The notes under the pieces: model-generated | What the model saw: the letters and a program-made list of their open reading frames with translations, nothing else | What the model was told of the DNA's origin: nothing | Database searches by the model: none | In this document: piece after piece, positions 5,666-39,862 of the stretch | How the letters are laid out: each line of letters starts with the position of its first letter | Numbering within the stretch: the stretch's first letter is position 1 | Position numbers and translations under genes: made by a program | Origin: Ignavibacteriales bacterium UBA6490 | Lineage (GTDB): Bacteria; Bacteroidota; Ignavibacteria; Ignavibacteriales; Ignavibacteriaceae | Direction of reading: 5' to 3' | DNA: 46,372 nt | Assembly: GCA_002435365.1 (NCBI GenBank) | Contig: DJMM01000008.1 | Location: 1 to 46,372, forward strand

Positions 5666-5675
5666 CACTGTTTTT

Positions 5676-6365
5676 TTATCTCTCCAGACCAAAGCTGTTG
5701 AAAAGCTCCCTATACCTGGCGATGATATCCTTTTTAATTTTTTCCAGATCTCTCCAGAAATCCTTCAGATGTATATCCCCTCCGAATTTAAAGTAATAAT
5801 CAGCCAGCTGGTTAATGTAGTTTGTTGTTAAATCCGAAATCATCTTAAAGGAGTTATCTGTATTTGAATTGAGCATATCCAGTTTTTCTGCTTCATCAGG
5901 TCTGATAACTTCTTCTTCATCCAGAACGGAATATTCATCAAACCTGTTTTCGAGTTCTTTATGCAGCACCCAGTTTGATGAAAGCTGGAAAAGATCCTCA
6001 AGGATACTATGTGCAAGCTGCTCTCTTTCGGAACGGTATTCATCTGCACTGCTGCTGCTCAGAGCTTTTGAAACAATCTCCAGGTTGTTCAGAATTGAAG
6101 AGAGGCTGGTGTGCTGTTCCTTCTCGTCGGCAATTTTTCTGAACTTTAATACTATTGCATCATCAAATGCGATTGCAGCATCGTTTTTTATGTTGTGGGA
6201 TTTTAGAGTAGAAAGAATTTCGGATTTCCATTCGGGAGCCCTTCTTTCCAGGAATTCCTCGGTAAGGTAAAAAGTTTTACCGGCAGAGGGGGAATCTACC
6301 ATGCTTACGATATAAAACTTGAGTTTTACAAGTGTTAAAAAAAGATTAAAATTTTCTCCGTTCAT
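5676..6365 (-). CDS. Hypothetical protein, acidic and predicted all-helical
   Basis: 229-aa ORF with a GAGGGAAAG Shine-Dalgarno-like sequence just before the ATG at 6365. I recognise no motif. The Ser-rich antisense ORF 5869..6270 is low-complexity and looks like a shadow of this gene. Confidence 0.6.
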   Translation of the reverse strand: MNGENFNLFLTLVKLKFYIVSMVDSPSAGKTFYLTEEFLERRAPEWKSEILSTLKSHNIKNDAAIAFDDAIVLKFRKIADEKEQHTSLSSILNNLEIVSKALSSSSADEYRSEREQLAHSILEDLFQLSSNWVLHKELENRFDEYSVLDEEEVIRPDEAEKLDMLNSNTDNSFKMISDLTTNYINQLADYYFKFGGDIHLKDFWRDLEKIKKDIIARYRELFNSFGLER

Positions 6366-14410: not shown

Positions 14411-14891
14411 CAATCATCCGATCAGTCATTCATTCAGTCTTTGTATAAATAACAGATGCTATTTCGATTAAGCCGGTCTTTAAATCCGGCATTCCTCGCC
14501 CCATCTTCCGTCACTAGGCAGGCATTCAGGCGAGGATTGACGGAAGAATCCCGGAGGATCCCCGGCTCAATCCCGGAGGACCACCTCAATAAGAACCTGA
14601 CCAATATCCACATGGATTCAGCAATTATTGACTTTCGTTTATTATTGTGAAAGAATCATTATCTCACCTGATAAGTCGCATTAATTATGAATGACCCCAA
14701 AATTCATCTTTCATTGGGAGAATTATGGAAGAGAAAATCCTGATGACTCTGCTTTTGTTATCTGCTGTCCTATTGTAAATATTTATTTAATAACAGAAAC
14801 TTTATGGTAAAAAAAACCGATCGGATATTTATAAACACTGTATAAATTGATTAACTTTTATGCAGGAAAAAATTTCTTTAAAGGTCCGGAA

Positions 14892-16016
14892 ATGAGAATT
14901 GATAAAGTTGAACTCCGACATACTAAAATGGAACTACTTACGCCATTTGAAACATCATTAGGTGTAGAAAGTTATGAAGAACATATCATTGTAAGAGTAG
15001 ACAGCGATGGACTTACCGGATGGGGTGAGTGTGTTGTGGAGCCAACCCCTGCATATTCTCCCGAGACCGTTAAAACTGCATGGCATATTCTCAGTGATTT
15101 TTTAATCCCGGCTGTTTTAAATAATAATATTTCCGAAGCAAAGGATTACATTGGTCACATATCCTGGATTCGTGGTCATAGAATGGCCAAAGCAGGTCTG
15201 GAAGCGGCTCTATGGGATCTGTCTGCAAAATCAAAAGGTATTAGTCTATCAAAATTACTGGGAGGTGTACAGCAAAAAATTGTTGTTGGTGTCAGTGTCG
15301 GGATGCAGGATGATGTCAATTCTCTGCTTAAGGAAATAAGCGGATTTATAGATGATGGCTACAGAAGAATCAAATTAAAAATATCACCAGGAAAAGATCT
15401 GCAGTATATCAAAGCAGTCAGAAAAGAATTTCCCGATATTTTATTTCAGGTTGATGCAAACTCCGCTTACGAACTGAAGCATATTGATATCTTCAGGCAA
15501 ATGGAGGATTATAACCTGCTTTTAATTGAACAGCCGCTGGGATGTGAAGATATCTATGCCCATTCCAGGCTTCAGCGTGAATTGAAAACTCCGATCTGCC
15601 TTGATGAAAGTATCCGCTCTGCTGAGGATGCAAAAGCAGCCGTGGAATTGGGAAGCTGTAAAAATATTAATATCAAACCGGGAAGGGTAGGAGGGTATAC
15701 GGAATCAATAGCAATACACGATTACTGTGCTGCAGAAAATATTCCGGTATGGCATGGCGGCATGGATGAATCAGGGATTGGCAGAGCCGGCAACATTGCA
15801 TTGGCCTCATTGCCTGATTTTATTTTACCGGCCGATATTTCCGCAAGCAGGAGATATTACAGGAAAGATATAGCGGAACCACTATTTGAACTAAATAAAG
15901 ACGGAACTATCGATGTACCAGTAAAACCCGGCATTGGTGTGGAAGTGGATATTAAACAACTGGATACAGTAACTGTCTTTAAAGATGAGTTTAAGAATCC
16001 CAAAAGGAATTTATAA
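14892..16016 (+). CDS. Enolase-superfamily enzyme, o-succinylbenzoate synthase / N-acylamino-acid racemase subgroup
   Basis: MRIDKVELRHTKMELLTPFETSLG...GWGEC is a typical N-terminal capping domain. Metal-ligand-type contexts are QVDANSAY, LIEQPL and CLDESI, with the general-base context RIKLKISPG. The ATG at 14892 is preferred over the track TTG at 14847. Confidence 0.85.
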   Translation: MRIDKVELRHTKMELLTPFETSLGVESYEEHIIVRVDSDGLTGWGECVVEPTPAYSPETVKTAWHILSDFLIPAVLNNNISEAKDYIGHISWIRGHRMAKAGLEAALWDLSAKSKGISLSKLLGGVQQKIVVGVSVGMQDDVNSLLKEISGFIDDGYRRIKLKISPGKDLQYIKAVRKEFPDILFQVDANSAYELKHIDIFRQMEDYNLLLIEQPLGCEDIYAHSRLQRELKTPICLDESIRSAEDAKAAVELGSCKNINIKPGRVGGYTESIAIHDYCAAENIPVWHGGMDESGIGRAGNIALASLPDFILPADISASRRYYRKDIAEPLFELNKDGTIDVPVKPGIGVEVDIKQLDTVTVFKDEFKNPKRNL

Positions 16017-17432: not shown

Positions 17433-18920
17433 CTATTTTAAGTTTTTAACAACCCTGAGAATCGAATAATTTTCTCCTTCCTTCAGCAGATTCGCATAAT
17501 TCCTGTATGTAACCAGTCCAAGCTCCGATTTCGGTTCAAGTGCAATAACAATCATATTGTTTTTTAACTGGTTTGCTGGAATAAAAATGTAATCGTTCTC
17601 AGAAAGTTGATTTGTAATTTCTTTCAGTTCAGTTATGGGATTTACAACTATGTCGCCTTCAAAATCCATTGAATCAATTCGAATGATGTGGTATTGCTCT
17701 ATCTTATATTCATTTGAATTTTTAAAATCATAATAAACCAGGGAATGTTTTCCGGCCCAGTCAATCACCTCATTAAGAACTTTTGGTACTAAATAACCTA
17801 TGGGCCGCTCAACATCATATAAGGATTTCACAACGGGACGGTAATCGGCAACAGTGATAATTGTATCAGAATCGGAGTAATATGACAAAAGAGGAAGTTC
17901 CAGCTTACTGCCGTCAGAGAAATGATCTAACTGGATTGAGATATTCGGGCTTATCTCACCTTTGACAAGTTTTTCCCTCTGATCCGCTATAAGATTCTTA
18001 ATTTCATCTTTATGCCTGTAGCTGTAAACCAGCAGTCCCATCATTCCTGCCATCTGTGTTTCGGAACGTCTTTTTATATTGTCCAGGGAATCTATTCCGT
18101 TTTTACCCTCCTGTATAAAGGAAAAAGAATTTTGAATTCCCAGGCTTTGTCTGCCGTCATTTATGTCGAAGGTGCTTCTTCTTATGTAATTAACTTCCGG
18201 AGGTCCTCCCGGGAGGTATTCAAAACAGCTGATCTCTTTATCCTTAAGATAATCTATTATGAAATTCAGATACTCACGGGATAATTCAGTGATATTCTGC
18301 GAAATATTTATGTTGGTTACAGTGCCTATTTCCACTTCGTTATCAGTCCTGTACCCGTAAATTTTCCAGGTTTCGCCATACGGAAAATATTCATGTACAT
18401 CAAGGGTTACATCAAAAAGATATTTATTGAACAATTTATGCAGACCCGCTGTTTCCGGCTCAGTAAGGATCAGGTGGTTGCGGTTGAGGTCCATTGCATT
18501 TCCATTACGCCGCTGATTTTTTTCAGAACCATCGGGGTTCATTTGGGGTACTATAGCCAGATCAATTTTATCGAGTAAATATTGATTTTCAGATCTCAGC
18601 ATTTCATTTATTAAAAGCAGTGCACCTTCTTTGCCGGAATGCTCATTACCATGCTGTTGGGCAAAGATGAGTATTTTTAATTTTGTTTCATCTTTTCCAA
18701 AACCGTCTTTCGAAAGGTATACGGCATATAGTTTTCTTCCTTCAACAGATTCAGCGATCACTTCTTTGGTCACGAGATCGGAGTTATGGTCAGCAACCTC
18801 CAGGAATTGAGAAAGTTCATCGTGCGATGTAATTTTTGTATAATTACATTTTTGCAGCGGGGTCAACTGACCGACAGCAGATGCAAAAAACAGAAATTGA
18901 AAGAAAAGAATTTTCTTCAT
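17433..18920 (-). CDS. M14-family zinc carboxypeptidase, secreted
   Basis: HxxE zinc motif QQHGNEHSG, plus MDLNRNH and TLDVHEY (third zinc ligand context). Signal peptide MKKILFFQFLFFASAVGQ. Confidence 0.85.
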   Translation of the reverse strand: MKKILFFQFLFFASAVGQLTPLQKCNYTKITSHDELSQFLEVADHNSDLVTKEVIAESVEGRKLYAVYLSKDGFGKDETKLKILIFAQQHGNEHSGKEGALLLINEMLRSENQYLLDKIDLAIVPQMNPDGSEKNQRRNGNAMDLNRNHLILTEPETAGLHKLFNKYLFDVTLDVHEYFPYGETWKIYGYRTDNEVEIGTVTNINISQNITELSREYLNFIIDYLKDKEISCFEYLPGGPPEVNYIRRSTFDINDGRQSLGIQNSFSFIQEGKNGIDSLDNIKRRSETQMAGMMGLLVYSYRHKDEIKNLIADQREKLVKGEISPNISIQLDHFSDGSKLELPLLSYYSDSDTIITVADYRPVVKSLYDVERPIGYLVPKVLNEVIDWAGKHSLVYYDFKNSNEYKIEQYHIIRIDSMDFEGDIVVNPITELKEITNQLSENDYIFIPANQLKNNMIVIALEPKSELGLVTYRNYANLLKEGENYSILRVVKNLK

Positions 18921-19049
18921 ATTGTATTAAACTTTCTTGTTAAAGAGTTGCTGATTATACTATAATTTTTGACGGCTAAGCTGCTCTGATATTTTATATC
19001 CGGTATTCATATCCTGAAAAACTGTAAACACCGGGAATTTGAAGAAATA

Positions 19050-20042
19050 TTAAAAACTCAAATTCACCGAAATCCGGTGTACGCTAGGTAAAATATCATA
19101 TACAGAATAAGCGTAGTCAAAGTAAACTGCAGTGCTGCCTAACGGAACATTTGCACCCGCACCAAATGCAAAATCCTGGTCATCATAATTATACTTATAG
19201 CCGGCACGGACAAAAAATCTGTCAAAAAAGGAGAACTCTGTTCCGAAATGAGCACGTTCACGGTTATCATTCGGATGTGAAACATCAATTGCACTTTTCA
19301 TTTTTACAAAGTTCAGCTCAAACACATCAAAGCCAACTCCTACCTGGAAATACAATGGCAGCGGATATTCTTCAGTATTTAATCGGCTGGGGATTAATCT
19401 GCTTATAGGATAGTTATTATCTTTCCTGTGTATAAAGTCAAGATCGGGGCCGTCAAATTTCATATCCGAACCGAAGTTTGTCATGCACATAGCAATTGTC
19501 AGATTATGGAAATCGAGCCTGTACTGGGTACCGATATCAAATGCAATTCCCGATGCAGTCTCATTCCATATTCTTTGATTAATGTACTTAACTGTTAAAC
19601 CGACATTAAATTTGTCAGTCAGGAACCTTGCATATGAAAAACCTAATGCAATATCGCCGGCATCGAAATATCTTCCGGTGCCGTTTGGTTCTTCTTCAGT
19701 CGTAATCTCCATTTTACCTGTAGTGAACAAAATCATGCTGGCACCGAAAGTTCCCAGGTCACCCGCATTATAAACAACCGAAGCCGCATTGAAATCAAAT
19801 AAATCAAACCAGTTCATATAGGAAAAATGAGCCTGAACATTTTTAACTTTTGCAATTCCGGAAGGATTCCAGAATATGGCAGAGGCATCATCTGCAAAAG
19901 CTACTATTGCGCAGCCCATTGCTTCAGCACGGGCACCTACCGGGAGCTGAAGAAACTGGGCACCGGTTGTTCCAAGGTTCGGATTTTGTGCAATAATTTT
20001 TCCGAAGCTTATTATAAGTATAAAGAATAATATTTTTTTCAT
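19050..20042 (-). CDS. PorV/PorQ-family outer-membrane beta-barrel (T9SS-associated)
   Basis: Signal peptide followed by GTTGAQFLQLPVGARAEAMGCAIVAFADDASAIFWNPSGIA, which is the N-terminal signature I associate with PorV/PorQ. Alternating beta-strand pattern and a C-terminal aromatic residue (VNLSF). An AGGAG Shine-Dalgarno sequence is present. Confidence 0.7.
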   Translation of the reverse strand: MKKILFFILIISFGKIIAQNPNLGTTGAQFLQLPVGARAEAMGCAIVAFADDASAIFWNPSGIAKVKNVQAHFSYMNWFDLFDFNAASVVYNAGDLGTFGASMILFTTGKMEITTEEEPNGTGRYFDAGDIALGFSYARFLTDKFNVGLTVKYINQRIWNETASGIAFDIGTQYRLDFHNLTIAMCMTNFGSDMKFDGPDLDFIHRKDNNYPISRLIPSRLNTEEYPLPLYFQVGVGFDVFELNFVKMKSAIDVSHPNDNRERAHFGTEFSFFDRFFVRAGYKYNYDDQDFAFGAGANVPLGSTAVYFDYAYSVYDILPSVHRISVNLSF

Positions 20043-20060
20043 TTAAACTCCTGCTTCAGA

Positions 20061-22805
20061 TTATTTAATAATTGCAAATCGTTCTTTAAAACTTGAGTCT
20101 TTTGTTTTAACGACGTAGATATAAATCCCGGCAGCTGTTTCTCTTCCGCCTTCTGTTCTGAGGTCCCACACTTCGGTTCCGTTAGTGGCATTATGATTAA
20201 TTGTTTTAATCAAATCCGCATCGATAGTAAAAATATAAATTGTGCACTCCGTGGGAAGATTAATAAACTGTATTTGTCTTAATGGTTCTCTTCTCAGCTC
20301 ACCAAATTCCCGCTCATAGAGAGACGAAACTATATATGGATTAGGCACAACTCTTATTTTATTTAATTCGCCTGTAACCTGCTGCGGATTGATCTGAGCG
20401 CCCTTAATTTTAAAGGAGTATGAATCCTGAACATTTGGTTTTACCGGTTTTATAACTTCAACCGAAAATTTATTTCCTGCCGAAGGCGGTGAATTTACCG
20501 GGAAGGTTATTTCTCCTTCAATCCCGTCAAAATAAAATACATCAGATGAGAATAAAGTATCCGACTGAATGTTGGTATTCGTAACTGATAATAACACAAA
20601 ACCAGCGTTGTTCAACGAACCGTTCCCCTCGATTGATACGATATAGTTTTTTTCCAGAATTGAATCAGGGTAGAGCACGCTAAAATCAATTTCTACCTCA
20701 TCTGTCCCGCCAATTCTTGAAACGCTTTTTATTATATCAGGTTCTGCCAGTTTTAAAGAAATGCCATCAGTTGTAGTCTGCACCTGGTTAAGCTGGTACG
20801 GGCGGTTGTTAATAACAGGATCCTCTGAGTTGCGGACAACTGACATGGCATAATTAATTGTTATTATATCACCCTGTTCCGGTCGGTATTCATCAAGTGT
20901 CCCCGCGGTGTCCACCATGGTGACTTTCAGGCCATCTGATGTCAGGTTCAGTGTTCTGCCGCCATACGGGTAACCGTATCCGGGCCTGATTATAGTGTTA
21001 AGGGTAAGATTTTTAAGATCAAAAGTACTTGGTGATGAAAACTCAATTGCATATTTATACGGTTTTGTAGCATTGGAATCAGTGACAAGTACATCCACAC
21101 TAGTAGCCAGATCGCCAACTTCCTTCCTGGGTACAAAGGAAAATGTGGTTTTATATTCATTGCCCGCAAGCGATTCCTGATCAATTACGGATGCATCGAG
21201 AAGGTAATTGGAACTCCCGGTGCCCAAATTAATTACATCGATGGCAGATACAGCAGTTCTGCCGATTGCCTCCGATCTGGGGATGACTGAAACCGTATTT
21301 ACAGCTTCAAGGTTATTACCGATAGGACTTTCCAGACTTTCAATTGTTGAGTTCCCTTTGTCATACGCAGTAATTGAATACCAGTATTCAAAACCATTGG
21401 TAACTGTTGTATCAATATATGTATACTGCAGCCCGGTGTTAGATCCAACTGTATTAACAAGGTCAAATTGGGTGATTTTAGTCCAGTTAATTCCTCTATC
21501 TACACTTCTGTAAAGTCTGTAGCCTTCGAAATCATAGCCGGAGAATTCATCAAAACTTAACTCAGCTTTGTCGTCCCAGTAAAGGACAGCTTTAAAATCT
21601 CCCGCGGATGAATAGAGGTTCGGACGGGTCGGAGCTTTTGGTAAATTGAAATCAGCGTCAAGGGCGTTCTGTGCCACAGTAGCGGTGTTCATCATTTCTT
21701 CATAAGTTTCCCCGGCAATTATGGCCGTATAAAAGACCAGCGTATCAGAAGGACTTAAGGTGTAGGGACCGGATGAAAAGTGACCTTGAATATCCATTCC
21801 TGAAGCCGGAATTGTAGCAGGATCGTCAAAATGGATATCGGTGTTATTTCCAATATGAAAGTATCTGTGCCCGTCTGGTGAATTGAAGAGACTGGAATCA
21901 GAGGACATATAACCATACTGGACTGAATCATTATCAGACAAATTATCATCATCATATAACATATAATGCATATCTGTAATGCCTAACTGTTCGCCGTTGA
22001 CTTCGGGGGTCCTTAATAACATAACACCGAAAAATCCCGTTTTCCCGTCAGGCCATTCTCCTGAAAGGCCGTCATCATAAAAATAAATCAGGTTTTTCGA
22101 TTTGATAAAATTCATTTTATCATCTCCCCATTCCGGTAAACCACCGCTGACATCCCCTACATCAATATCATTATGCAGATGAAAATAGACTCCCTGGTAA
22201 GTATTCTGACTGTTGTTTGTAAGTTCGAATTTATAGAAGAGTGTATTTTTTATAAAATTTGTTCCGAAAGCATAACCGGTTTGGGCTAATTGGATTCCAA
22301 GGATACTGACTGTGTTATTGCTATCATTAAATACACAATAACTATCCTGATCGGAAATTATGATATTATTGCCATCTTTATCTTTAACGGGCCAGCCAAG
22401 CTGGGGATTCCAGGAATTGGGATCATCGCTGAAGGCAACTCTTGCCGTATCGCTGTTATGGTATCCGAAAGCAGCCTCCCATTCCTCATTTGTGGTAAAC
22501 CGTCCCTGGACAACATTTCCAGGAATGCCTACAAATTGATTGATCCGATATATATAATTTTTACCACTATTGATTGGAAATTCTCCTGATGGGCCCTGGG
22601 ATAGAAATCTTGGATATAGCTTTCCGCGGTTTTCAAAAAACAAGCCTATGTTACTGGCATTATGTATACCTGCTGCGCGATCCTGGATTCGTGTTGGCTT
22701 TTCCAGGGGATTTTTATCATCAATATCTTTATCATATTGTGCGAAGACAGTTGATGTGAAAATCAGCAACGTTATCAGGATTTTAAAATGTAAAACTCTT
22801 TTCAT
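20061..22805 (-). CDS. Large secreted protein with an FN3-like module and a T9SS-type C-terminal sorting domain
   Basis: Signal peptide MKRVLHFKILITLLIFTSTVFAQ. FN3-like segment KAVLYWDDKAELSFDEFSGYDFEGYRLYRSVDRGINWTKI. C-terminus VVPNPY...IQFINLP...IYIFTIDADLIKTI...AAGIYIYVVKT...RFAIIK resembles a Por_Secre_tail/FlgD-Ig-like CTD. Confidence 0.75.
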   Translation of the reverse strand: MKRVLHFKILITLLIFTSTVFAQYDKDIDDKNPLEKPTRIQDRAAGIHNASNIGLFFENRGKLYPRFLSQGPSGEFPINSGKNYIYRINQFVGIPGNVVQGRFTTNEEWEAAFGYHNSDTARVAFSDDPNSWNPQLGWPVKDKDGNNIIISDQDSYCVFNDSNNTVSILGIQLAQTGYAFGTNFIKNTLFYKFELTNNSQNTYQGVYFHLHNDIDVGDVSGGLPEWGDDKMNFIKSKNLIYFYDDGLSGEWPDGKTGFFGVMLLRTPEVNGEQLGITDMHYMLYDDDNLSDNDSVQYGYMSSDSSLFNSPDGHRYFHIGNNTDIHFDDPATIPASGMDIQGHFSSGPYTLSPSDTLVFYTAIIAGETYEEMMNTATVAQNALDADFNLPKAPTRPNLYSSAGDFKAVLYWDDKAELSFDEFSGYDFEGYRLYRSVDRGINWTKITQFDLVNTVGSNTGLQYTYIDTTVTNGFEYWYSITAYDKGNSTIESLESPIGNNLEAVNTVSVIPRSEAIGRTAVSAIDVINLGTGSSNYLLDASVIDQESLAGNEYKTTFSFVPRKEVGDLATSVDVLVTDSNATKPYKYAIEFSSPSTFDLKNLTLNTIIRPGYGYPYGGRTLNLTSDGLKVTMVDTAGTLDEYRPEQGDIITINYAMSVVRNSEDPVINNRPYQLNQVQTTTDGISLKLAEPDIIKSVSRIGGTDEVEIDFSVLYPDSILEKNYIVSIEGNGSLNNAGFVLLSVTNTNIQSDTLFSSDVFYFDGIEGEITFPVNSPPSAGNKFSVEVIKPVKPNVQDSYSFKIKGAQINPQQVTGELNKIRVVPNPYIVSSLYEREFGELRREPLRQIQFINLPTECTIYIFTIDADLIKTINHNATNGTEVWDLRTEGGRETAAGIYIYVVKTKDSSFKERFAIIK

Positions 22806-22828
22806 GATAATACCTTAAGAAAAAAATA

Positions 22829-25285
22829 CTAATTAAATCTTATGGTTAAACCCAGCCTGACAGAGCGGGGGGGTCCATAGTTAGAGGGATCGCGCATATA
22901 TTCATTTGAATAGCCGCCAACCAGTGTATAGTCGGGATCACCGGTATCACCATAGACATAAAGAACATTTCTATGGTCAGTTAAATTCAGAATTTCAGCG
23001 AATAATCTAAGCTTCAGTTTGTCGTACAGTCCGAATTCTTTTCCGACCATAAGATCAATATTATAAACTGCAGGTCTTCTCAGTGAATTCATCTCCACAA
23101 ATCCGATATCTCTGCCGCTTGGCGTATAGGGTGCCCCTGAGCTTGCCTTTATTATAAGGCTGAAGTCCATGTTTCCAAATATTGCTGAACCGAAAATCTG
23201 TGGTCCTTCACCTTCCGGAATCATATAAGTACCGCTTGCATTGAATACATGTGTCCGGTCCCAATCAAGATAATATAGCTGCGTAGATTCCTGGGTCCCC
23301 GGATACTGTTCTGTTTCAGACGAAGCACTGCCTTTTACAATAGAATAAGTATAAGTTAAACCGCCCGCAAAATATTTGGTAGGTCGTGTATCGACAGTAA
23401 CCTCAAAGCCTTTGTTGTTTGCATAATCTTCATTTACATATAATGTATAACCGGTATACCTGCCGTCAACAAACGGGAAATAGTAACGGGTTCCGATCAG
23501 TCCTGTAATATCTCTGTAATAGGCAGTCAGATCCATTGCAACGTTGTCGGAAAACTGATGCGAGATACCGACCTCATAGGATATAGTTCTTTCCGCATCG
23601 AGATTTGGCTGACCAAATAACGGTTCTCTTACGTTCAGATCGTACTGTTTGTTCTCGAACAGGTACTCGAAATCAGGATTCTGAAAAAAGTGTCCATACG
23701 AAAAACGCAGCTTGGTTTTATCAGAAATGGGATGAGAGATGCCCAGTCGCGGAGAGATCTGTGATCTGGATTTTACTTCAATGATAGAATTTGGATCCAG
23801 GGGATTCCCCCTGAATTGAACATTGGCATTCATATAGTCGTAGCGGAGTCCAACATTTATAACCAGGTAGGGCAATTCTATTTTATCCTGCAAATAAGCG
23901 GCAGCCTCGAACGGCCTTGTACTGTAATCGTTTATATAGGGAAAGTCTCTTTTAGGATCGTAGATATAAAATAATTTAAGACGATGATTTTTATATAATA
24001 ACCCGAACTTAACTTCGTTCATTGATCCGATCTGCCATACTGCATCTCCTTTGACGTCTGCGGTAACTGTTCTGCCATCTGTCAGTTCAGAGGGATCAGA
24101 GAAACTGAAAAATTCATGTCCGTTTCCATAATTATCGAAATACCCGTAATCAGTATATTCACGATAATCCGATGTATCTTTATCAATACCGGAGTAATAA
24201 CCCTGATTGAAATATGAAACTTTAACATCATAGAAAAAATCATTTGATACTGTGTGTGTTAAATTTAAGGAGGTCTGCCAGCTATCCGTTCTTCTTCTGA
24301 GATACTGTTCCGGAATATATTTGTATGAATGATTGTAACTCTGTCTTTTCCCTTTACTTCCCCTGTTGGAAAGTACGATTTTTACATAAGGAATTGCAGT
24401 TGTAGATATTTTACTGTAAAAAGATCTTGTATTATTATAGCCGAAAGGTAGGTAGCTTCCCCGTTCATCGATTTCACCGGAGAGGAAAAAATTATACTCC
24501 GGCCAAATGATCGGTCCGCTTATGCTTCCATTGATTCTGTTTTCTTCAAGATCTGCATATTTGTCGATTCCAAATTCGCTGGTTCTGGCTTCAAGTTTGG
24601 CAGAAAATTTATCGGTCCCGTCCCTGGTCACAATGTTAACGACACCGCTCAATGCATTTCCATATTCCGCATTAAATGTTCCGCTGAGCAGGCTCATCTC
24701 CTGAATGGCATCATTGTTAATTTCCGTTGCCAGACCGCCGAGCAGGGGATCTATAACCAGAGTTCCATCGATCATATATGCAACCTCATTTGATCTTCCG
24801 CCACGCACATGGAGGTTGGAGCTGCTTCCGGTAACACCTGCCTGAAGCGACAGTAAATCTGTGAAAGATGAAACAGGTAATGCTTCTATCTCTTCACGGG
24901 TAATAACCGAGATGCTGCTTGTAACATCTTTTTGAATAAGCGGGGTACGTGCGGTTACAATAACTTCACCAACCTGGATGGTTTGAGAATTCAGTTCTAT
25001 CTGCATCAGGGTAGTCTGATCAACGGTTATGGTAACATCTTTTACAAGCAAAGTCTCATAGCCGATATAGCTGTACTTAACCGAGTATTTGCCGGGAGAG
25101 ATGTTAAGAATAACATATTCCCCGTTAACATTAGCAGCAGCACCCAGGTTTGTTCCCTCAATAATTACATTTGCACCGACTAACGGTTCTCCGGTAGCTG
25201 CATCCCTGATTGTCCCGGATAGTTTACCGGTAGTACCTCCGTAAAGCAGGAAGGGAATTACGATAATAAAAAACAATCTTTTCAT
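22829..25285 (-). CDS. TonB-dependent receptor with N-terminal carboxypeptidase-regulatory-like domain
   Basis: GKLSGTIRDAATGEPLVGANVIIEGTNLGAAANVNGEYVILNISPGKYSVKYSYIGYE is CarboxypepD_reg-like. The plug region is VIVTARTPLIQKDVTSSISVITREEIEALPVSSFTDLLSLQAGV. A long beta-barrel ends in RLGLTIRFN. Confidence 0.9.
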   Translation of the reverse strand: MKRLFFIIVIPFLLYGGTTGKLSGTIRDAATGEPLVGANVIIEGTNLGAAANVNGEYVILNISPGKYSVKYSYIGYETLLVKDVTITVDQTTLMQIELNSQTIQVGEVIVTARTPLIQKDVTSSISVITREEIEALPVSSFTDLLSLQAGVTGSSSNLHVRGGRSNEVAYMIDGTLVIDPLLGGLATEINNDAIQEMSLLSGTFNAEYGNALSGVVNIVTRDGTDKFSAKLEARTSEFGIDKYADLEENRINGSISGPIIWPEYNFFLSGEIDERGSYLPFGYNNTRSFYSKISTTAIPYVKIVLSNRGSKGKRQSYNHSYKYIPEQYLRRRTDSWQTSLNLTHTVSNDFFYDVKVSYFNQGYYSGIDKDTSDYREYTDYGYFDNYGNGHEFFSFSDPSELTDGRTVTADVKGDAVWQIGSMNEVKFGLLYKNHRLKLFYIYDPKRDFPYINDYSTRPFEAAAYLQDKIELPYLVINVGLRYDYMNANVQFRGNPLDPNSIIEVKSRSQISPRLGISHPISDKTKLRFSYGHFFQNPDFEYLFENKQYDLNVREPLFGQPNLDAERTISYEVGISHQFSDNVAMDLTAYYRDITGLIGTRYYFPFVDGRYTGYTLYVNEDYANNKGFEVTVDTRPTKYFAGGLTYTYSIVKGSASSETEQYPGTQESTQLYYLDWDRTHVFNASGTYMIPEGEGPQIFGSAIFGNMDFSLIIKASSGAPYTPSGRDIGFVEMNSLRRPAVYNIDLMVGKEFGLYDKLKLRLFAEILNLTDHRNVLYVYGDTGDPDYTLVGGYSNEYMRDPSNYGPPRSVRLGLTIRFN

Positions 25286-26151
25286 TTTTTGCTCCCGATA
25301 ATGATCTGATTCTGATTCTCCATTATTTCCTGAGTTTCTTTCATTACTTTCTGTGCTTTTGCTTTTTCCCTCAGTGCGCAGCCCGTTGCAATTGCATTTA
25401 TAAGTACGGATATTGCTGCGAACGAATTAGTAAACAGCATGTTTTCACTTTTTACTATCAGATTGGATTTAGTATAAAAGGTTACCGGAGAGGTCTGTTT
25501 GTTTGTAATTGAAATTACCGGTATTCCCTTCTGTTTTGCAAACTGCGCTGCCTCGATTGTCTCTTTTGAATAAGGCGGAAAGGAGAAAACTATTAGCAGA
25601 TCCTTTTTCTTCATGAAAAGAATCTGCTCATGGAAAATTGTATGGGTGTGTTTAAATACTGATGAATCAATTCCTACCTGGTTTAATTGATAAGCCAGGA
25701 TTTCTGAAAGCAGGTAGGATATTCCAAGTCCGGCAGTAAAAACTCTGTCCGCCATTAGAATATCACCTATTACACTATTGAATACTTTTCTTTCAATTAA
25801 ATTCAGTGTGCTATTGATGTTTGTAATATCTACATTTGCCACTTCAGTAAGAAGGTCGTGATCGGCCATATGCTTTTCAAAGAGGGGGAATATCTCTTTT
25901 TCGCTGAGTCTGGCCTGGAATGATTCAACAACGGCTTCCCTTAATTCACTGAAACCGCCAAATCCGATACGCTGAGCGAACCTGATTACCGAAGCAACAC
26001 TTATGCCGGTACTATCGGATATATCCTTCACCGTCAGGAATGAAATCCTGTCCAGATTGTCGACAAAGAAATCCGCCAGTTTCTTATTATTCCTAGAAAG
26101 AATTCCATAATTCTTCTGAATTAGATCCTTTATCTTTTTATACTTGTCCAT
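25282..26151 (-). CDS. RpiR-family transcriptional regulator (HTH_6 + SIS domain)
   Basis: The HTH is VKDISDSTGISVASVIRFAQRIGFGGFSELR. The SIS region is VFTAGLGISYLLSEILAYQLNQVG. Its TGA overlaps the receptor ATG as ATGA (25282-25285). Confidence 0.85.
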   Translation of the reverse strand: MDKYKKIKDLIQKNYGILSRNNKKLADFFVDNLDRISFLTVKDISDSTGISVASVIRFAQRIGFGGFSELREAVVESFQARLSEKEIFPLFEKHMADHDLLTEVANVDITNINSTLNLIERKVFNSVIGDILMADRVFTAGLGISYLLSEILAYQLNQVGIDSSVFKHTHTIFHEQILFMKKKDLLIVFSFPPYSKETIEAAQFAKQKGIPVISITNKQTSPVTFYTKSNLIVKSENMLFTNSFAAISVLINAIATGCALREKAKAQKVMKETQEIMENQNQIIIGSKK

Positions 26152-34510: not shown

Positions 34511-35770
34511 ATGATCGACATTCCGGGAAAAAGGACCGAACGCGCCATTCTTATTGCATTAAATACCGGGGATACTACCAGGGAAATTACTGAAGAACAT
34601 CTTTCCGAGCTTGAAGAACTTGCTTTTACGGCAGGCGCCGAAACAATAATGAAAGTTATCCAGGACCGTGCTACAGCCGATCCCGCTTTTTATGTGGGCA
34701 GGGGAAAAGCTGAGGAACTTAAATTCTTTGCTGAACAGAACGAAATAGAAATACTTATATTTGATGATGAACTTTCCCCCACTCAGCTGAGGAACCTTGA
34801 AAATCTTATTAAAAGAAAAATAGTGGACAGGACAGGATTAATTCTTGATATCTTCGCACAGCGTGCCAGAACAAAGGAATCAAAAACCCAGGTTGAGCTT
34901 GCGCAGCTGCAGTATCTTTTGCCGAGATTAACCAGGGCATGGACACATCTTTCAAAGCAGTACGGAGGCATTCGAACCAAGGGTCCCGGTGAAACACAGA
35001 TTGAATCCGACCGCCGTTTAATCAGGAACAGGATAAGTCACCTTAAAGAAAAATTGAAAAAAATTGAATCACAGAGGGAAACCCAGGGAAAGAAAAGGGA
35101 AAATTTTCTCAGGATTTCCCTGGCGGGATATACCAATGCCGGAAAATCCACGCTCTTCAATACACTTACAAGCTCCGAAGTATTCGCTGAAGACAAGCTT
35201 TTTGCGACACTCGATTCCACCACCCGTCTGCTTAACCTGAATGATGCAGGAATGCTTCTCAGCGATACCGTGGGATTTATAAGAAAACTGCCGGCAAATC
35301 TTGTAGCTTCCTTTAAGAGCACTCTTAACGAAGTGCGCTTTGCGGATCTTATAATTCATGTTATTGATGTTACACATCCTTATTTTGAGGATCATATTCA
35401 GGTGGTGAACGATACACTGAATGATCTTGGCTGCAGCGACAAATATGAAATTAAGGTCTTCAATAAAATAGATATACTGAAAAACCGGAACCTGCTTAAT
35501 TACATTTCAAACAAGTACAAAGGAAGCATCCCCCTCTCTGCTGCGCGGGGAATAAATATTAACAGGCTCAAAGAGAGGATCATTCAATACTGGAGTGATT
35601 CTTTTATAGAGGAACAGATTGATCTTGAACTCTCTGATTCCAAAAAGGCAGCAATGATCCATTCACTGGCGGACGTAATATCCACAAAATATGATGATGA
35701 TTTTATACATATCATATACAGGGCGAGCAAAGGGAATGCAGAAAAAATAAAAAGGATGATAAACGGCTGA
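34511..35770 (+). CDS. hflX: GTPase HflX
   Basis: HflX N-terminal domain (ELEELAFTAGAE...GRGKAEEL...IFDDELSPTQLRNLE). G1 is GYTNAGKSTLFNTLT, G3 is DTVGFI and G4 is NKID. Confidence 0.93.
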   Translation: MIDIPGKRTERAILIALNTGDTTREITEEHLSELEELAFTAGAETIMKVIQDRATADPAFYVGRGKAEELKFFAEQNEIEILIFDDELSPTQLRNLENLIKRKIVDRTGLILDIFAQRARTKESKTQVELAQLQYLLPRLTRAWTHLSKQYGGIRTKGPGETQIESDRRLIRNRISHLKEKLKKIESQRETQGKKRENFLRISLAGYTNAGKSTLFNTLTSSEVFAEDKLFATLDSTTRLLNLNDAGMLLSDTVGFIRKLPANLVASFKSTLNEVRFADLIIHVIDVTHPYFEDHIQVVNDTLNDLGCSDKYEIKVFNKIDILKNRNLLNYISNKYKGSIPLSAARGININRLKERIIQYWSDSFIEEQIDLELSDSKKAAMIHSLADVISTKYDDDFIHIIYRASKGNAEKIKRMING

Positions 35771-35843
35771 AATCTGCTGTGACCCTGGTGATGTCCCTTG
35801 TTTATAGATTGAAATTTCTTACCTTCGTCAATATATTTTTAGT

Positions 35844-36506
35844 ATGAAAATGAAATTAACATGTCTGGCGGTGGCTGTTTGTCTTTGTAGTAATTTATTT
35901 GCCCAGGAGGCAGGTGCTTTCCAAATTGCCCGGTTAAAATACAACGGCGGGGGGGACTGGTATAACGATCCGTCCGCGGAAATAAACCTGTTAAAATTTG
36001 TTGGTGCAAATACAAATATTAAAGTAAGCCCGGAATATAAATTTGTGGATCTTTCTACTGATGAAATATTCTCATATCCTTTTTTATTTATGACCGGTCA
36101 TGGGAATGTTGTTTTTTCAGGTTCGGAAGCGCAGCGTCTGAGGAAATATCTTGAGAACGGGGGATTCCTTTTTATCGACGACGATTATGGGCTTGACAAA
36201 GCATTAAGAAAAGAGATGAAAAAAGTTTTCCCGGAACGTGATTTTATGGAGCTTCCCTTCACTTACGGTATTTATAATATTTTATATGATTTCAGGAACG
36301 GACCGCCGAAAACACACCGGCATGATGAAAAACCGCCCCAGGGTTTTGGAATTTTTATCGGTGATAAGCTGGCGGTATATTATACATTTGAATCTAATCC
36401 AAGTGACGGATGGGCTGATCCGGAGGTGCATAATGATCCTCCTGCCAAAAGGGAGGAGGCATTGAAATTCGGAACAAACATTGTGGTATGGGCATTATCT
36501 GAATGA
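35844..36506 (+). CDS. DUF4159-domain exported protein
   Basis: Signal peptide, then ARLKYNGGGDWYNDPSAEINLL...PFLFMTGHGNVVFSGSEAQRLRKYLENGGFLFIDDDYG, which is the pattern I associate with DUF4159. Confidence 0.75.
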   Translation: MKMKLTCLAVAVCLCSNLFAQEAGAFQIARLKYNGGGDWYNDPSAEINLLKFVGANTNIKVSPEYKFVDLSTDEIFSYPFLFMTGHGNVVFSGSEAQRLRKYLENGGFLFIDDDYGLDKALRKEMKKVFPERDFMELPFTYGIYNILYDFRNGPPKTHRHDEKPPQGFGIFIGDKLAVYYTFESNPSDGWADPEVHNDPPAKREEALKFGTNIVVWALSE

Positions 36507-39500
36507 GTGAATCGGTTTTATATAAGGAAATTATTAAAAAGCTTGAACGCAAAACCAAACGCGGGCAGGTTTTTATGGCTTATAAAGGAGCACTTATAAC
36601 AGTTTTGTTATGCAGCTCCGTTTTCTTTGTTATTACGCTTGCCGAATCTCTGTTTCATTTCAGTTCCGGGGTAAGAACCGTACTTTTTTTCCTTTTTGTT
36701 CTTTCAGTAGTGGGATCTGCAGCATACCTTGTTGCAGTTCCGCTGCTTAAGTATTTCAGATTTTTCAGACGGACCGATTATTTCAGTGAGGCTGCAGAAG
36801 TCGGTTCATATTTTCCATCATTAAAGGATGAGCTTTTAAATGCCATGCAGCTGGTTTCCGGATCATACGGCTCCGGTTATTCTTCTGAATTAATTGATGC
36901 GGCTTTCCGGAGAATATATTTTAAATCTGAGGAACTGCGGTTTGAGGAAGTAATTGACTTCAGAAAAGTGAAGTCGATGATATTATATGCTGCCGGTGTG
37001 TTACTGCTGATGCTGATGCTTATAGTTTTAGTACCCGGTTTAGCGTCTGCTTCCTCCAGGCTTTATAACTTCAGTCAGGATTTTATTCCGCCCCCTGAAT
37101 TTGTGCTTAATGTATTTCCCGGTGATGCGCAAGCTTCAAAGGGCGATAATATTACGGTTAAAATAACAGCATCGGGAATTATTCCGAAAGAGGTATATGC
37201 TGCAGTAAAATCGGAGGCGCAGACAGATTTTAAACCGGAACGCCTGACAGCCGATTCTTCAGGAGTATTTGAATACACTATAAATTCCATCAGAAGTTCG
37301 GTTGATTATTATGCATATTCCGGTGATATAAGCAGCAGGATATACCGCATAGAGGTTTCGGATAAACCGCTGATAAAAAATCTTGAAATAACAGTAACTC
37401 CCCCTGCATATACTGGTCTTCCTGAAATCACACAAACAGACAATGGAAATATCTCTGCGATTATGGGCAGCCGGGCTTACATCAGGATAAGTTCAAATAA
37501 AGAGCTGCGGAAAGCGGAACTCAGTTTCGGTGACTCAGTTGTAAAAAATCTTGAGGTGCGTTATTCGTCAGCTTCCGGAAGATTTATACTTAATAATGAG
37601 ACGGAATACAGGATTCATCTTGCCGATGCTGCAGGTAGTCCGAATGAATCGCCCGTAACATATAAGATAACCCTGCTGGAGGATGAATATCCGCAGATTG
37701 AATTTACGGAACCGGGTGCTGATGTTGATCTTGCTAACGATAATCGTCTGCCGCTGGGAATCAAAATATCTGACGACTTCGGATTTTCGAGGCTGCTGGT
37801 TAGATACAGACTTTCGGAATCCCGTTACGAAAAACCGCATAAGGATTATTCGGTTTTTGAACTTGCAATTCCGGAGAGACAAAAGGAGGCCGAAATCTCA
37901 TATATATGGAATCTGTCATCCTTAAATCTGGCCACGGACGATGTTGTCTCTTATTATGCTGAGGTGTCTGATAACGACAGGGTGTCGGGGCCTAAATCGT
38001 CACGGTCTCCTGAATTTAAAATAAGAATTCCATCTCTTGATGAAATTCTGGTACAGGCAGACCAAAAGCACAGCCAGGTTGCGAACGATCTTGAAAAGAC
38101 TCTAAAAGAGGCGGAGGAACTGAAAAAGACCCTCGATAAAATCAGCAATGATCTGAAGCAGGATAAAAAGGAACTCAGCTGGGAGGAAAAAGAAAAGATC
38201 GAGAATGCTCTCGATAAATTTGAACAGCTTCAGGATAAGCTGCAGAAATCAGCAGAGGATATGAACGAGTTACGGAAAGATCTGCAGAAGAATAATCTGT
38301 TGTCAAAAGAGACGCTTGAGAAATATATGGAGCTTCAGAAACTATTTGAAGAATTATCCGGCGATGAATTTAAGAAAGCAATGGATCAGCTGAGAAATCT
38401 GCTCGAAAAGATGGACAGAAAATCAGCCATGGATTCTTTTGAAAATCTTAAAGTCAATGAAGAGAATTTAAGAAAGGGCATCGAACGTACCATTAATCTG
38501 CTAAAGAGGGTAAGAATTGAACAGAAAGTAGAAGAGCTTGTTAAAAGGTCCGGGGAAGTTGATAAAAATCTTGAAGATATTATGAAGGAAAGTAATCCTT
38601 CACAGAACTCTCTCCGGAAGCAGGAGAATATGACAGCAGAAATGAAAAACATTGAAAAGGAGATGGAAAAGCTTCTGGATGAGATGGAAGGTCTGGATGA
38701 TATGCCGAAGGATGAGATGGAAAAAATTTCTGAGGAATTTAATAAGCAGGAGAATGAGAAGCTCAGCAGTGAGGCATTAGAAAATCTAAAACAGAATCTT
38801 ATGCAACAGGCCCGGCAGAAACAGTCGCAGTTATCAAAGAACATGAAAAATTTTGCTGAGGAAATGCAGCAGCTTCAGCAGCAGCTTCAGCAGCAGAGCC
38901 AGATGCAGGTTTTTTCCGATATGATGAGAATTCTTGAAAACCTTATTACACTTTCCAAGAAGCAGGAAGAGCTGATAAAGGAAAGTATGAATTTTAACGA
39001 TTCGCCGTCGAGCCGGAATGCCGAAAAACAGACAAACCTGCAGAGAAATCTAGATAACCTTATCAGGCAGCTCGGCGAATTATCCCAGAAAACCTTTGCC
39101 GTTACACCGGAGATGGGGAAAGCATTAGGAGATGCTAAGAGGGAAATGACTAAATCCACTCAGGCAATTCAATCAAAAAACGGCAGCCTGGCAGCAAATT
39201 CCCAGCAGGATGCCATGAAATCCCTAAATGAAGCAGCATCATCAATGCAGAGTTCTATGGAAGCAATGATGCAGGCCGGTGGAGGGGGTGGAATGTCCTT
39301 AATGCAGCAGCTTGGACAGATGGCACAGCAGCAGATGGGATTAAATAATCTGACGCAGAAAATGATGCAGGGGAACCAGGGACAATTATCTCTTTCTGAG
39401 CAGGCGGAACTGAGGAGAATCCAGGAGCAGCAGGAACTTATAAAAAAATCTCTTGAAGAACTTAACCGCGAAGCAAAACTTTCAGGTGAGTCTAAAAAGA

Positions 39501-39862
39501 TACCCTCAAATCTTGAGAATATTGTGAAACAGATGGAAGAAGTAATCTCTGATATGGATACCGGGCAGCTGGACGACAACCTGGTACAGAAACAGGAAAG
39601 AATATTATCAAGGCTGCTGGACGCGCAAAGGTCGTTGAATGAACGTGATTTTGAAAAGCAGAGGGAATCATTCAGCGGAGAAAACGTGGTAAGGAAATCA
39701 CCCTCCGGTCTGAACTATGGAGACCGTCAGGAGGAAAAACTGAAAGACGAATTGAACAGATCTTTTGATGAAGGATACAAAAAAGATTATGAAAGCCTGA
39801 TAAGAAGCTATTTTGAGGAATTAAGGAAAGAAAACAACCGGCAAAAGCCCCCAACTGATTGA
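36503..39862 (+). CDS. Large membrane-anchored coiled-coil protein (DUF4175-like)
   Basis: N-terminal TM segments, a central beta-rich region, then about 550 aa of E/K/Q-rich coiled coil with QQLQQQLQQQ and a GGGGG tract. 1119 aa. Its ATG overlaps the DUF4159 TGA (ATGA at 36503-36506). Confidence 0.7.
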   Translation: MSESVLYKEIIKKLERKTKRGQVFMAYKGALITVLLCSSVFFVITLAESLFHFSSGVRTVLFFLFVLSVVGSAAYLVAVPLLKYFRFFRRTDYFSEAAEVGSYFPSLKDELLNAMQLVSGSYGSGYSSELIDAAFRRIYFKSEELRFEEVIDFRKVKSMILYAAGVLLLMLMLIVLVPGLASASSRLYNFSQDFIPPPEFVLNVFPGDAQASKGDNITVKITASGIIPKEVYAAVKSEAQTDFKPERLTADSSGVFEYTINSIRSSVDYYAYSGDISSRIYRIEVSDKPLIKNLEITVTPPAYTGLPEITQTDNGNISAIMGSRAYIRISSNKELRKAELSFGDSVVKNLEVRYSSASGRFILNNETEYRIHLADAAGSPNESPVTYKITLLEDEYPQIEFTEPGADVDLANDNRLPLGIKISDDFGFSRLLVRYRLSESRYEKPHKDYSVFELAIPERQKEAEISYIWNLSSLNLATDDVVSYYAEVSDNDRVSGPKSSRSPEFKIRIPSLDEILVQADQKHSQVANDLEKTLKEAEELKKTLDKISNDLKQDKKELSWEEKEKIENALDKFEQLQDKLQKSAEDMNELRKDLQKNNLLSKETLEKYMELQKLFEELSGDEFKKAMDQLRNLLEKMDRKSAMDSFENLKVNEENLRKGIERTINLLKRVRIEQKVEELVKRSGEVDKNLEDIMKESNPSQNSLRKQENMTAEMKNIEKEMEKLLDEMEGLDDMPKDEMEKISEEFNKQENEKLSSEALENLKQNLMQQARQKQSQLSKNMKNFAEEMQQLQQQLQQQSQMQVFSDMMRILENLITLSKKQEELIKESMNFNDSPSSRNAEKQTNLQRNLDNLIRQLGELSQKTFAVTPEMGKALGDAKREMTKSTQAIQSKNGSLAANSQQDAMKSLNEAASSMQSSMEAMMQAGGGGGMSLMQQLGQMAQQQMGLNNLTQKMMQGNQGQLSLSEQAELRRIQEQQELIKKSLEELNREAKLSGESKKIPSNLENIVKQMEEVISDMDTGQLDDNLVQKQERILSRLLDAQRSLNERDFEKQRESFSGENVVRKSPSGLNYGDRQEEKLKDELNRSFDEGYKKDYESLIRSYFEELRKENNRQKPPTD

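Follow-up and report, generated by a model that had tools for sequence, protein, structure and literature searches.

What serves a TonB-dependent receptor as its partner at the cell surface when no SusD-like lipoprotein is encoded beside it? The question is raised by a 46-kb stretch of Ignavibacteriales bacterium UBA6490 (46,372 nt in full; hereafter the window, to which coordinates refer unless a locus is named). Between positions 19050 and 26151 it carries four co-oriented minus-strand open reading frames (ORFs), which encode an RpiR-type regulator, the receptor, a 914-aa protein, and a 330-aa barrel. Our preferred answer, to which we give a probability of about 60%, is a SusD-independent uptake module in which the receptor works with the 914-aa protein as a surface partner anchored on the PorQ-like barrel, and which here probably takes up cyanophycin-derived peptides.

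19050-20042, minus strand: barrel gene; 330 aa, PorV/PorQ-family outer-membrane barrel (NF033709)
20061-22805, minus strand: gene for the 914-aa protein; signal peptide, secreted multi-beta-sandwich protein of a large unannotated family
22829-25285, minus strand: receptor gene; 818 aa with signal peptide, CarboxypepD_reg, Plug, and 22-strand-type TonB-dependent barrel
25282-26151, minus strand: rpiR; RpiR/MurR-type transcriptional regulator, 289 aa, HTH_6 and SIS domains

The gene order and the tight junctions described in the initial annotation were all recovered at the same coordinates. The rpiR stop codon overlaps the receptor start codon (ATGA), 23 nt separate the receptor gene from the 914-aa gene, 18 nt containing an AGGAG separate the latter from the barrel gene, and a spacer of 129 nt (18921-19049) follows the barrel before an M14 peptidase gene. 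Because of this overlap, the 23- and 18-nt gaps, a hairpin upstream of rpiR, and the 129-nt gap downstream, the four genes look like one transcription unit. The current definition of polysaccharide utilization loci (PULs) relies on SusC/SusD pairs and so confines them essentially to Bacteroidota. Searches with family hidden Markov models (HMMs) detected no SusD/RagB-like protein among the ORFs of at least 150 aa, which extends the absence first noted for the four-gene region to the whole window, and at this locus no susC-like gene stands next to a susD-like gene, the arrangement by which PULs are canonically recognized.

Conservation of the three-gene cassette

When a single genome was scanned for each GTDB species, at least 596 loci with relatives were returned; in the best 80, taken with their flanks, trios were detected by ORF calling and iterated HMM searches seeded by the window proteins. 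The 80 loci span Ignavibacteria, Melioribacteraceae, Calditrichia, Neomarinimicrobiota, WOR-3, Stahlbacteria, Eisenbacteria, Kryptonia, Rhodothermales, Balneolia, and metagenome-assembled genomes (MAGs) labelled as Cytophagia, among others. The receptor gene lies directly upstream of the gene for the large protein and on the same strand in 72 of the 75 loci with enough flank, and a PorV/PorQ-type barrel gene lies directly downstream in 73 of 76 testable loci. Intergenic gaps within the cassettes are mostly 10-25 nt (median about 20 nt). Since this order recurs in about 97% of the testable loci and across so many phyla, the three-gene arrangement is far beyond chance, and the synteny of the trio that had been predicted for genomes of the Fibrobacterota-Chlorobiota-Bacteroidota (FCB) superphylum is borne out.

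Few loci depart from this order. Two with frameshifted genes for the large protein (L017 and L019) are not genuine exceptions, and in L055 the barrel gene precedes the gene for the large protein, the upstream sequence of about 780 nt being too short to judge the receptor. The one clear exception is a Cloacimonetes MAG (L024, 7983-19000), whose family member has neither an upstream receptor nor a downstream PorV-like barrel; its gene is followed by a 369-aa ORF weakly resembling TonB-dependent receptors and by a second ORF that exceeds 2160 aa. More than one cassette, each accompanied by a barrel of its own, is found in some genomes or contigs (L027; L028/L047; L022/L065). The L027 contig (1-10424), from a Neomarinimicrobiota MAG, carries two convergent cassettes, and one of its large proteins is short (672 aa).

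Pairwise-distance matrices for 57 complete trios correlate at r = 0.86-0.95 among the three proteins, which indicates that the trio is inherited together. Distant cassettes differ from that of the window in their surroundings. A Pfam census of 103 ORFs flanking them was headed by Por_Secre_tail (24) and FlgD_ig (13) and included SSF symporters (5), GH3 (4), GH16 (4), LacI/Peripla_BP (4), SBP (3), and Malectin (3); SusD is absent from the 25 commonest families. These distant cassettes thus seem to sit in PUL-like loci whose secreted enzymes use the secretion system of type IX (T9SS); the cassette appears to be generic, with paralogous copies in other FCB phyla placed within glycan-utilization loci. 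The 914-aa protein may functionally replace SusD, as the initial annotation had proposed. Such a replacement is consistent with the position of its gene, which is that of susD, with the PUL-like content of distant cassettes (GH3, GH16, LacI, and SSF), and with the absence of SusD.

Receptor, surface protein, and barrel

The receptor has the domains of a TonB-dependent receptor, namely CarboxypepD_reg (PF13715), Plug (PF07715, 48.9 bits), and the barrel itself (PF00593, 122.5 bits). It had been described as SusC-like, which needs correction: against the SusC/RagA model TIGR04056 it scores 102.3 bits for a cut-off of 368.25, and only model positions 2-224 are aligned. The SusC likeness is therefore confined to the N-terminal extension and the plug, and membership of the SusC/RagA family is rejected.

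The 914-aa protein belongs to no Pfam or NCBIfam family and gives only sub-threshold matches, all to C-terminal domain (CTD) models. Its own family is large: close relatives with a length of about 914 aa number more than 800 in Ignavibacteria-type metagenomes, and an exhaustive profile search, counted as clusters at 50% identity, yielded 6343 at E ≤ 1e-3, 2781 at E ≤ 1e-10, and 587 at E ≤ 1e-30, with members mainly 900-1600 aa long. The structure was modeled with AlphaFold2 from a 76-sequence alignment (one row at 30% identity, the others at 44-80%), which gave a predicted local distance difference test score (pLDDT) of 85.5 and a predicted template modeling score (pTM) of 0.74. This model replaced a first one based on 28 close homologues (pLDDT 64), in which the N-domain and the CTD were unreliable and for which Foldseek was uninformative. 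Four parts can be distinguished in it:

21651-22673, minus strand: N-terminal beta super-sandwich (N-domain), residues ~45-385, by AlphaFold2
21276-21632, minus strand: FN3-like domain, residues ~392-510, by AlphaFold2; signature DFEGYxIYRS and an Asp-box-like SxDxGxxW
20361-21263, minus strand: variable run of immunoglobulin (Ig)-like beta-sandwiches, residues ~515-815, high pLDDT
20064-20354, minus strand: C-terminal beta-sandwich, residues 818-914; VVPNPY...GIYIYVV...RFAIIK

The signal peptide and the FN3-like segment recognized earlier are thus both present, the latter now delimited by the model. Foldseek matched the model to FN3 arrays and to the N-terminal non-catalytic sandwich of GH94/GH149/GH161 phosphorylases, with PorZ at rank 10, and the full-length family profile searched against PDB sequences gave one insignificant FN3-like match and nothing else. 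An enzymatic role was rejected because neither Foldseek nor Pfam nor NCBIfam revealed a catalytic fold or family. Identity across 61 diverse members is highest in the FN3 domain (44%) and the CTD (40%), lower in the N-domain (24%), and 8-12% in the middle. Given this low identity to distant members, residues ~515-815 are the candidate specificity region, and the profile as a whole is the pattern that would be expected of constant docking modules placed around a specificity module.

CTDs of T9SS type A are seven-strand Ig-like sandwiches with PxP, GxY, and terminal K/R motifs, and the tail of the 914-aa protein had been likened to them. Taken as a single sequence it falls below the curated cut-offs: TIGR04183 gives 19.7 bits for a cut-off of 23 (E = 6e-4), and PF18962 gives no match, even with the isolated tail. 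The isolated tail also hit CHU_C in Pfam, at 15.5 bits, which is noise level, and nothing else. The likeness fares better at the level of the family. Among 46 diverse members searched against NCBIfam, 34 match the PorZ model, 24 the PorU model, and 19 TIGR04183, and the PorZ and PorU matches cover the last 70-95 model positions, i.e., the CTDs. Searched with a profile built from 68 family tails, the 177,635 distinct PDB sequences yielded exactly two matches, the CTDs of Porphyromonas gingivalis PorZ (5M11, E = 0.0026, with ...RFAVIR aligned to the family's ...KFAVIK) and of PorU (6ZA2, E = 0.0063), both E-values being marginal, though the selectivity of the search is notable. Weak as these scores are, they suggest family-level CTD homology of the tail, nearest to PorZ and PorU. 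PorZ and PorU are the pair of T9SS proteins in which the CTD is retained; they are held at the surface by PorQ and PorV, respectively (PMC5562754, PMC10202324). Within the CTD, an inserted loop (residues 825-843, window 20298-20354, SSLYEREFGELRREPLRQ) has low pLDDT in the monomer model. It is nearly invariant inside the ortholog group of the window and variable between cassette subfamilies, and is a candidate for a partner-specific contact.

The barrel is a full-length member of the PorV/PorQ family, as the initial annotation had supposed (NF033709, 222.6 bits for a cut-off of 90, residues 25-330 on model positions 1-326; PF19572 PorV, 34.5 versus 27), and its sole PDB match is Flavobacterium johnsoniae PorV (6H3I_F, E = 1.5e-9), to which its N-terminus aligns. 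It is an ortholog of none of the named members: the PorV, PorQ, and PorV2 equivalogs (NF033710, NF033711, and NF052325) align over its N-terminal half only, and it scores 117.9 against PorQ (cut-off 220), 78.7 against PorV (250), and 63.9 against PorV2 (325). Assignment to FadL/Toluene_X (PF03349, FadL/TodX) was likewise rejected, at 16.9 bits versus 29.7 over 34 residues.

The three genes might be co-transcribed and their products form no complex, the receptor acting alone and the large protein and barrel making up a pair of the adhesin or S-layer kind, or a channel resembling FadL whose role is unrelated. PorV-family barrels are indeed FadL homologues (PMC12578637), the barrel has its weak Toluene_X match, and beta-sandwich/FN3 architectures are typical of adhesins too. 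We nevertheless consider this very improbable, given the strict order and tight spacing across phyla and paralogous cassettes, the co-divergence of all three proteins, the placement of cassettes in catabolic loci whose contents vary with the cassette subfamily, and a FadL score below its cut-off against 222.6 bits for the PorV/PorQ family.

What the barrel does for the large protein is the next question. As a dedicated but transient shuttle, it would escort the 914-aa protein away from the T9SS translocon; the CTD would then be cleaved by PorU, and the 914-aa protein would be released or linked to lipopolysaccharide, cooperating with the receptor only indirectly. PorV itself shuttles (PMC5562754), the N-terminus of the barrel aligns with F. 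johnsoniae PorV, and the 19 of 46 family members that match TIGR04183 do so with a generic model of the cleavable type. Several features are at odds with shuttling: the CTD is among the two most conserved regions, an uncommon trait in a signal that is thrown away; its likeness is to the two retained CTDs in particular; and the PorQ score of the barrel exceeds its PorV score. In addition, two smaller paralogs of 457 and 375 aa encoded at the same locus have ordinary CTDs and no private barrel, so a private barrel is unnecessary for mere secretion. We regard a transient shuttle as unlikely. The resemblance of the family tail to the retained CTDs of PorZ and PorU favors an anchor over a shuttle.

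Anchoring could also be independent of the T9SS, if the barrel, perhaps with the receptor, exposed or held the large protein and the PorZ/PorU-like tail were a domain of ancient origin for docking on barrels, not a signal for secretion. This would agree with a tail that stays below curated T9SS CTD thresholds, and BamG-BamH provides a FadL-like barrel that holds a surface protein outside the T9SS (PMC12578637). It fits poorly with the two paralogs of the same locus, whose canonical T9SS CTDs are above threshold, with the quarter of genes flanking distant cassettes that carry such CTDs, and with the reported occurrence of the T9SS across the FCB superphylum (PMC11205867), and we give it little credence. 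The T9SS core genes of this genome are located outside the window.

In the anchored, T9SS-exported arrangement that we prefer, the 914-aa protein would be exported by Sec and would cross the outer membrane by the T9SS route. Its CTD would be retained and dock on the cognate barrel at the extracellular loops, as in PorZ/PorQ and PorU/PorV, which would fix the protein at the cell surface beside the transporter. The conserved N-domain and FN3 domain would then face the transporter, and the variable Ig-like middle would bind substrate and pass it to the TonB-powered channel, the role played in Bacteroidia by SusD or surface glycan-binding lipoproteins. Partial correlations among distant pairs, calculated with no phylogenetic control, pair the CTD with the barrel (0.33, versus 0.10 with the receptor) and the N-domain with the receptor (0.385, versus 0.22 with the barrel), a pairing that is suggestive.

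Such a cassette would be akin in its working to SusC/SusD and RagA/RagB and to PorQ-PorZ, and a member of neither. Like the former, it has a gene for a CarboxypepD_reg and Plug receptor followed at once by that of a surface partner, and it likewise occurs in catabolic loci dedicated to particular substrates, together with genes for secreted hydrolases, regulators, and inner-membrane carriers, and as several paralogs per genome. It differs in its partner, which in SusC/SusD and RagA/RagB is an alpha-helical TPR lipoprotein and here an all-beta protein of 900-1600 aa with a T9SS-type CTD; it also differs in the obligatory third gene for a PorQ-like barrel, the lack of SusD, and a receptor that scores below the SusC model. 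With PorQ-PorZ and PorV-PorU of the P. gingivalis T9SS attachment complex it shares a PorV/PorQ-family barrel paired with a secreted CTD protein, and in those pairs the uncleaved CTD holds the secreted protein at the cell surface (PMC5562754, PMC10202324). The barrel of the cassette fails both equivalogs, however, and its passenger has neither the beta-propellers of PorZ nor the peptidase domain of PorU. Being encoded and co-evolving with a TonB-dependent receptor, and present in many copies, the cassette pair would serve nutrient uptake rather than cargo attachment.

PorP/SprF-type pairs (SprB-SprF of Flavobacterium) share the principle of a private barrel gene beside the single T9SS cargo that it serves (PMC10202324); the cassette differs in that its barrel belongs to the PorV/PorQ family, its CTD is type A-like (PorZ/PorU-like) rather than type B, and a receptor is linked. 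A structural precedent for an assembly of receptor, barrel, and surface protein may be seen in BamG-BamH of the Bacteroidota barrel assembly machinery (BAM), where the extracellular loops of a 14-strand FadL-type barrel packed on a larger barrel bind a surface protein (PMC12578637). This likeness is one of architecture; BamG-BamH functions in outer-membrane protein biogenesis, and BamH is not a CTD protein. The cassette, which would combine TonB-dependent uptake with T9SS-type surface anchoring, is widespread and unannotated, and we found no description of a cassette of receptor, CTD protein, and barrel in the literature searched, in which coverage of subscription journals was thin, so that this is not proof of novelty.

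Regulon and probable substrate

Upstream of rpiR, and downstream of the barrel, lie further minus-strand genes:

17433-18920, minus strand: M14 carboxypeptidase with signal peptide, 129 nt 3' of the barrel gene; found near the locus in 17 loci
26210-27583, minus strand: T9SS cargo paralog, 457 aa, N-domain and canonical type A CTD
27600-28727, minus strand: T9SS cargo paralog, 375 aa, N-domain and canonical type A CTD
28776-30176, minus strand: YfcC/DcuC-family transporter (YfcC, 406 bits)
30173-31027, minus strand: cyanophycinase (S51) with signal peptide (TIGR02069, 183.8 bits for a cut-off of 126.6)
31037-32131, minus strand: M20 PepT-like peptidase (239 bits)

The close orthologs of the window cassette share these companions. 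RpiR, M20, S51, YfcC/DcuC, one or two small T9SS cargo proteins, and the trio, often with M14, are kept together across phyla, in Ignavibacterium sp., Zhuqueibacterota, and an unclassified "bacterium"; S51 and YfcC are invariant, and M14 and an MR_MLE-fold gene are variable. Beside distant cassettes, we found no S51, YfcC, or small paralog, and RpiR twice. The S51 protein aligns with a solved cyanophycinase (7UQV, E = 7e-41) including the GTSAGA serine motif, and reaches 31.5 bits only against the PepE model, and the transporter is nearest to the "putative basic amino acid antiporter" YfcC.

The 457- and 375-aa proteins are paralogs of each other (31% identity) that are retained in the ortholog group. 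Both have PF18962 and TIGR04183 matches above cut-off, with the CTD directly after an N-domain homologous with the one in the 914-aa protein (hhalign 97.7%, E = 1.5e-12). The locus thus contains three copies of one uncharacterized N-domain family with two different C-terminal solutions for sorting or anchoring.

The regulator has the architecture of RpiR/MurR proteins, with HTH_6 (PF01418, 56.5 bits) at the N-terminus and SIS (PF01380, 75 bits) at the C-terminus, and reaches no cut-off among the NCBIfam equivalogs. It had been taken to head the receptor module. In our comparison it accompanies the close ortholog group, every time together with cyanophycinase and YfcC. In Zhuqueibacterota and another non-Ignavibacteria lineage (L084, 1204-13888; L085, 1057-13808), rpiR is the first gene of an operon in the order rpiR, M20, S51, YfcC, CTD protein, receptor, large protein, and barrel; compared with these, rpiR of the window appears to have been relocated to directly 5' of the receptor. 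By this comparison, RpiR is outside the conserved cassette and belongs to the cyanophycinase/YfcC/M20 regulon particular to the ortholog group. The earlier interpretation is supported in part: its comparative-genomic predictions hold, and the role of RpiR and the membership in SusC had to be revised.

Because this regulon holds a predicted periplasmic cyanophycinase, a YfcC-type carrier for basic amino acids or peptides, and an M20 peptidase, the import cargo is likely to be cyanophycin-derived (beta-Asp-Arg)n oligomers or peptides much like them, and a cyanophycin-type utilization locus seems the most economical reading of the ortholog-group context. Positions 28776-32131 and the receptor cassette together make up the candidate locus, in which the cyanophycinase would be periplasmic rather than cytoplasmic or extracellular. 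The route would lead from surface capture through TonB-dependent import of oligomers to periplasmic cyanophycinase, import of beta-Asp-Arg by YfcC, and a cytoplasmic dipeptidase. Known cyanophycin scavenging proceeds from extracellular CphE through dipeptide import to CphZ, IadA, and IaaA (PMC9974463). The two share a cyanophycinase homologue, a basic-peptide carrier, and peptidases in one regulon, and differ in that the locus places a predicted periplasmic cyanophycinase behind a TonB-dependent import step. CphZ, IadA, and IaaA were not identified at the locus, and an assignment of the M14 protein as CphZ is unsupported, its best solved relatives being carboxypeptidase T-type enzymes. TonB-dependent uptake of cyanophycin was not described in the literature searched, with the same thin coverage of subscription journals, which is again not proof.

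The same architecture could serve another substrate, such as peptidoglycan-derived peptides, amino-sugar peptides, or generic Asp-containing peptides. The MurR/RpiR-type regulator with its phosphosugar-type SIS domain, the weak MpaA-like matches of the M14 protein, and the beta-lactamase-fold, S11, C69, and C45 genes in related loci would fit this, as would a nearby plus-strand gene of the MR_MLE fold (enolase superfamily; 14847-16016), which lies among peptidases and scores as OSBS/N-succinylamino-acid-racemase type (TIGR01928, 335.9 bits for a cut-off of 200.65). On the other side stand the score of S51 above the cyanophycinase equivalog cut-off and its low one against PepE, the "basic amino acid" type of the carrier, and the invariance of S51 and YfcC in a group in which M14 and MR_MLE vary. 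A different substrate is a real alternative, though a less probable one. The MR_MLE gene itself matches L-Ala-D/L-Glu epimerase models at sub-threshold scores only, and its product is more plausible as N-succinyl-amino-acid racemase or dipeptide epimerase than as an enzyme of the menaquinone pathway.

A number of observations count against an anchored cassette for cyanophycin-derived peptides. For the anchoring, these are the failure of the 914-aa tail at the TIGR04183 cut-off and its lack of a PF18962 match, the marginal E-values of the two PDB matches to the tail profile, and the partial correlations, which are no more than suggestive, since kinship is uncontrolled and the differences are modest. 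For the substrate, cyanophycin is a large insoluble polymer, and RpiR/SIS regulators normally sense phosphosugars, a poor fit to a peptide polymer. Moreover, an Ignavibacterium sp. locus (L001, 13762-17046) has, between barrel and M14, a 405-aa C45-like gene and a gene for a 686-aa S51 protein with a Por_Secre_tail, and this secreted, cyanophycinase-like S51-CTD enzyme is missing from the window locus. The neighboring M14, MR_MLE, and beta-lactamase-fold genes could point to salvage of peptidoglycan peptides.

Taken further, and tentatively, at somewhat less than even odds, the non-Bacteroidia FCB phyla (Ignavibacteria, Calditrichia, Marinimicrobia, KSB1, WOR-3, Rhodothermales, and others) would share a widespread unrecognized class of uptake systems, in which a transporter is joined by a T9SS-exported beta-sandwich protein anchored through a retained PorZ/PorU-type CTD on a PorQ-like barrel, and the window copy would be the first case of TonB-dependent uptake of cyanophycin-derived peptides. 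If so, the conserved cassette would be a marker for polymer-utilization loci in abundant, little-studied environmental phyla, and the trimeric module a SusD-independent counterpart of SusCD utilisomes. The role of PorV/PorQ-family barrels and retained CTDs would extend from secretion housekeeping to nutrient capture, and anchoring of the PorQ-PorZ type would be a general mechanism of surface display rather than a peculiarity of the T9SS attachment complex. A role would also be given to a very large family of "hypothetical" proteins (the 6343 clusters at E ≤ 1e-3 and 587 at E ≤ 1e-30). Ignavibacteria thrive in anoxic sediments and bioreactors, and the window locus suggests an unrecognized scavenging route for nitrogen-rich cyanophycin in such environments.

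Flanking elements of the window

The hairpin mentioned above lies in the 58 nt that separate the stop codon of the 457-aa gene from the start of rpiR:

26168-26197, minus strand: hairpin with an 11-bp stem, TGTCAGCCCGG-N8-CCGGGCTGACA

It is probably a terminator or attenuator that divides two transcription units, and may stop or dampen transcription that runs on into rpiR and the receptor gene. A consensus terminator scan missed it because the T-run after the stem is weak. Across the window, the scan for sigma-70 promoters and terminators did no better than on shuffled sequences, and its output was not used. The GC content is even, at about 40%, and by its homologues the window belongs with Ignavibacteria.

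Two ORFs at 4409-6365, of 418 aa (plus strand) and 229 aa (minus strand), match nothing in Pfam at E ≤ 1e-5. On the other side of the locus, a plus-strand Bat-like cluster (32397-39862), as far as seen bearing no relation to the receptor cassette, comprises a BatA/VWA gene, a GTPase with HflX-like domains, a DUF4159 gene, and a gene for a 1119-aa DUF4175 protein.

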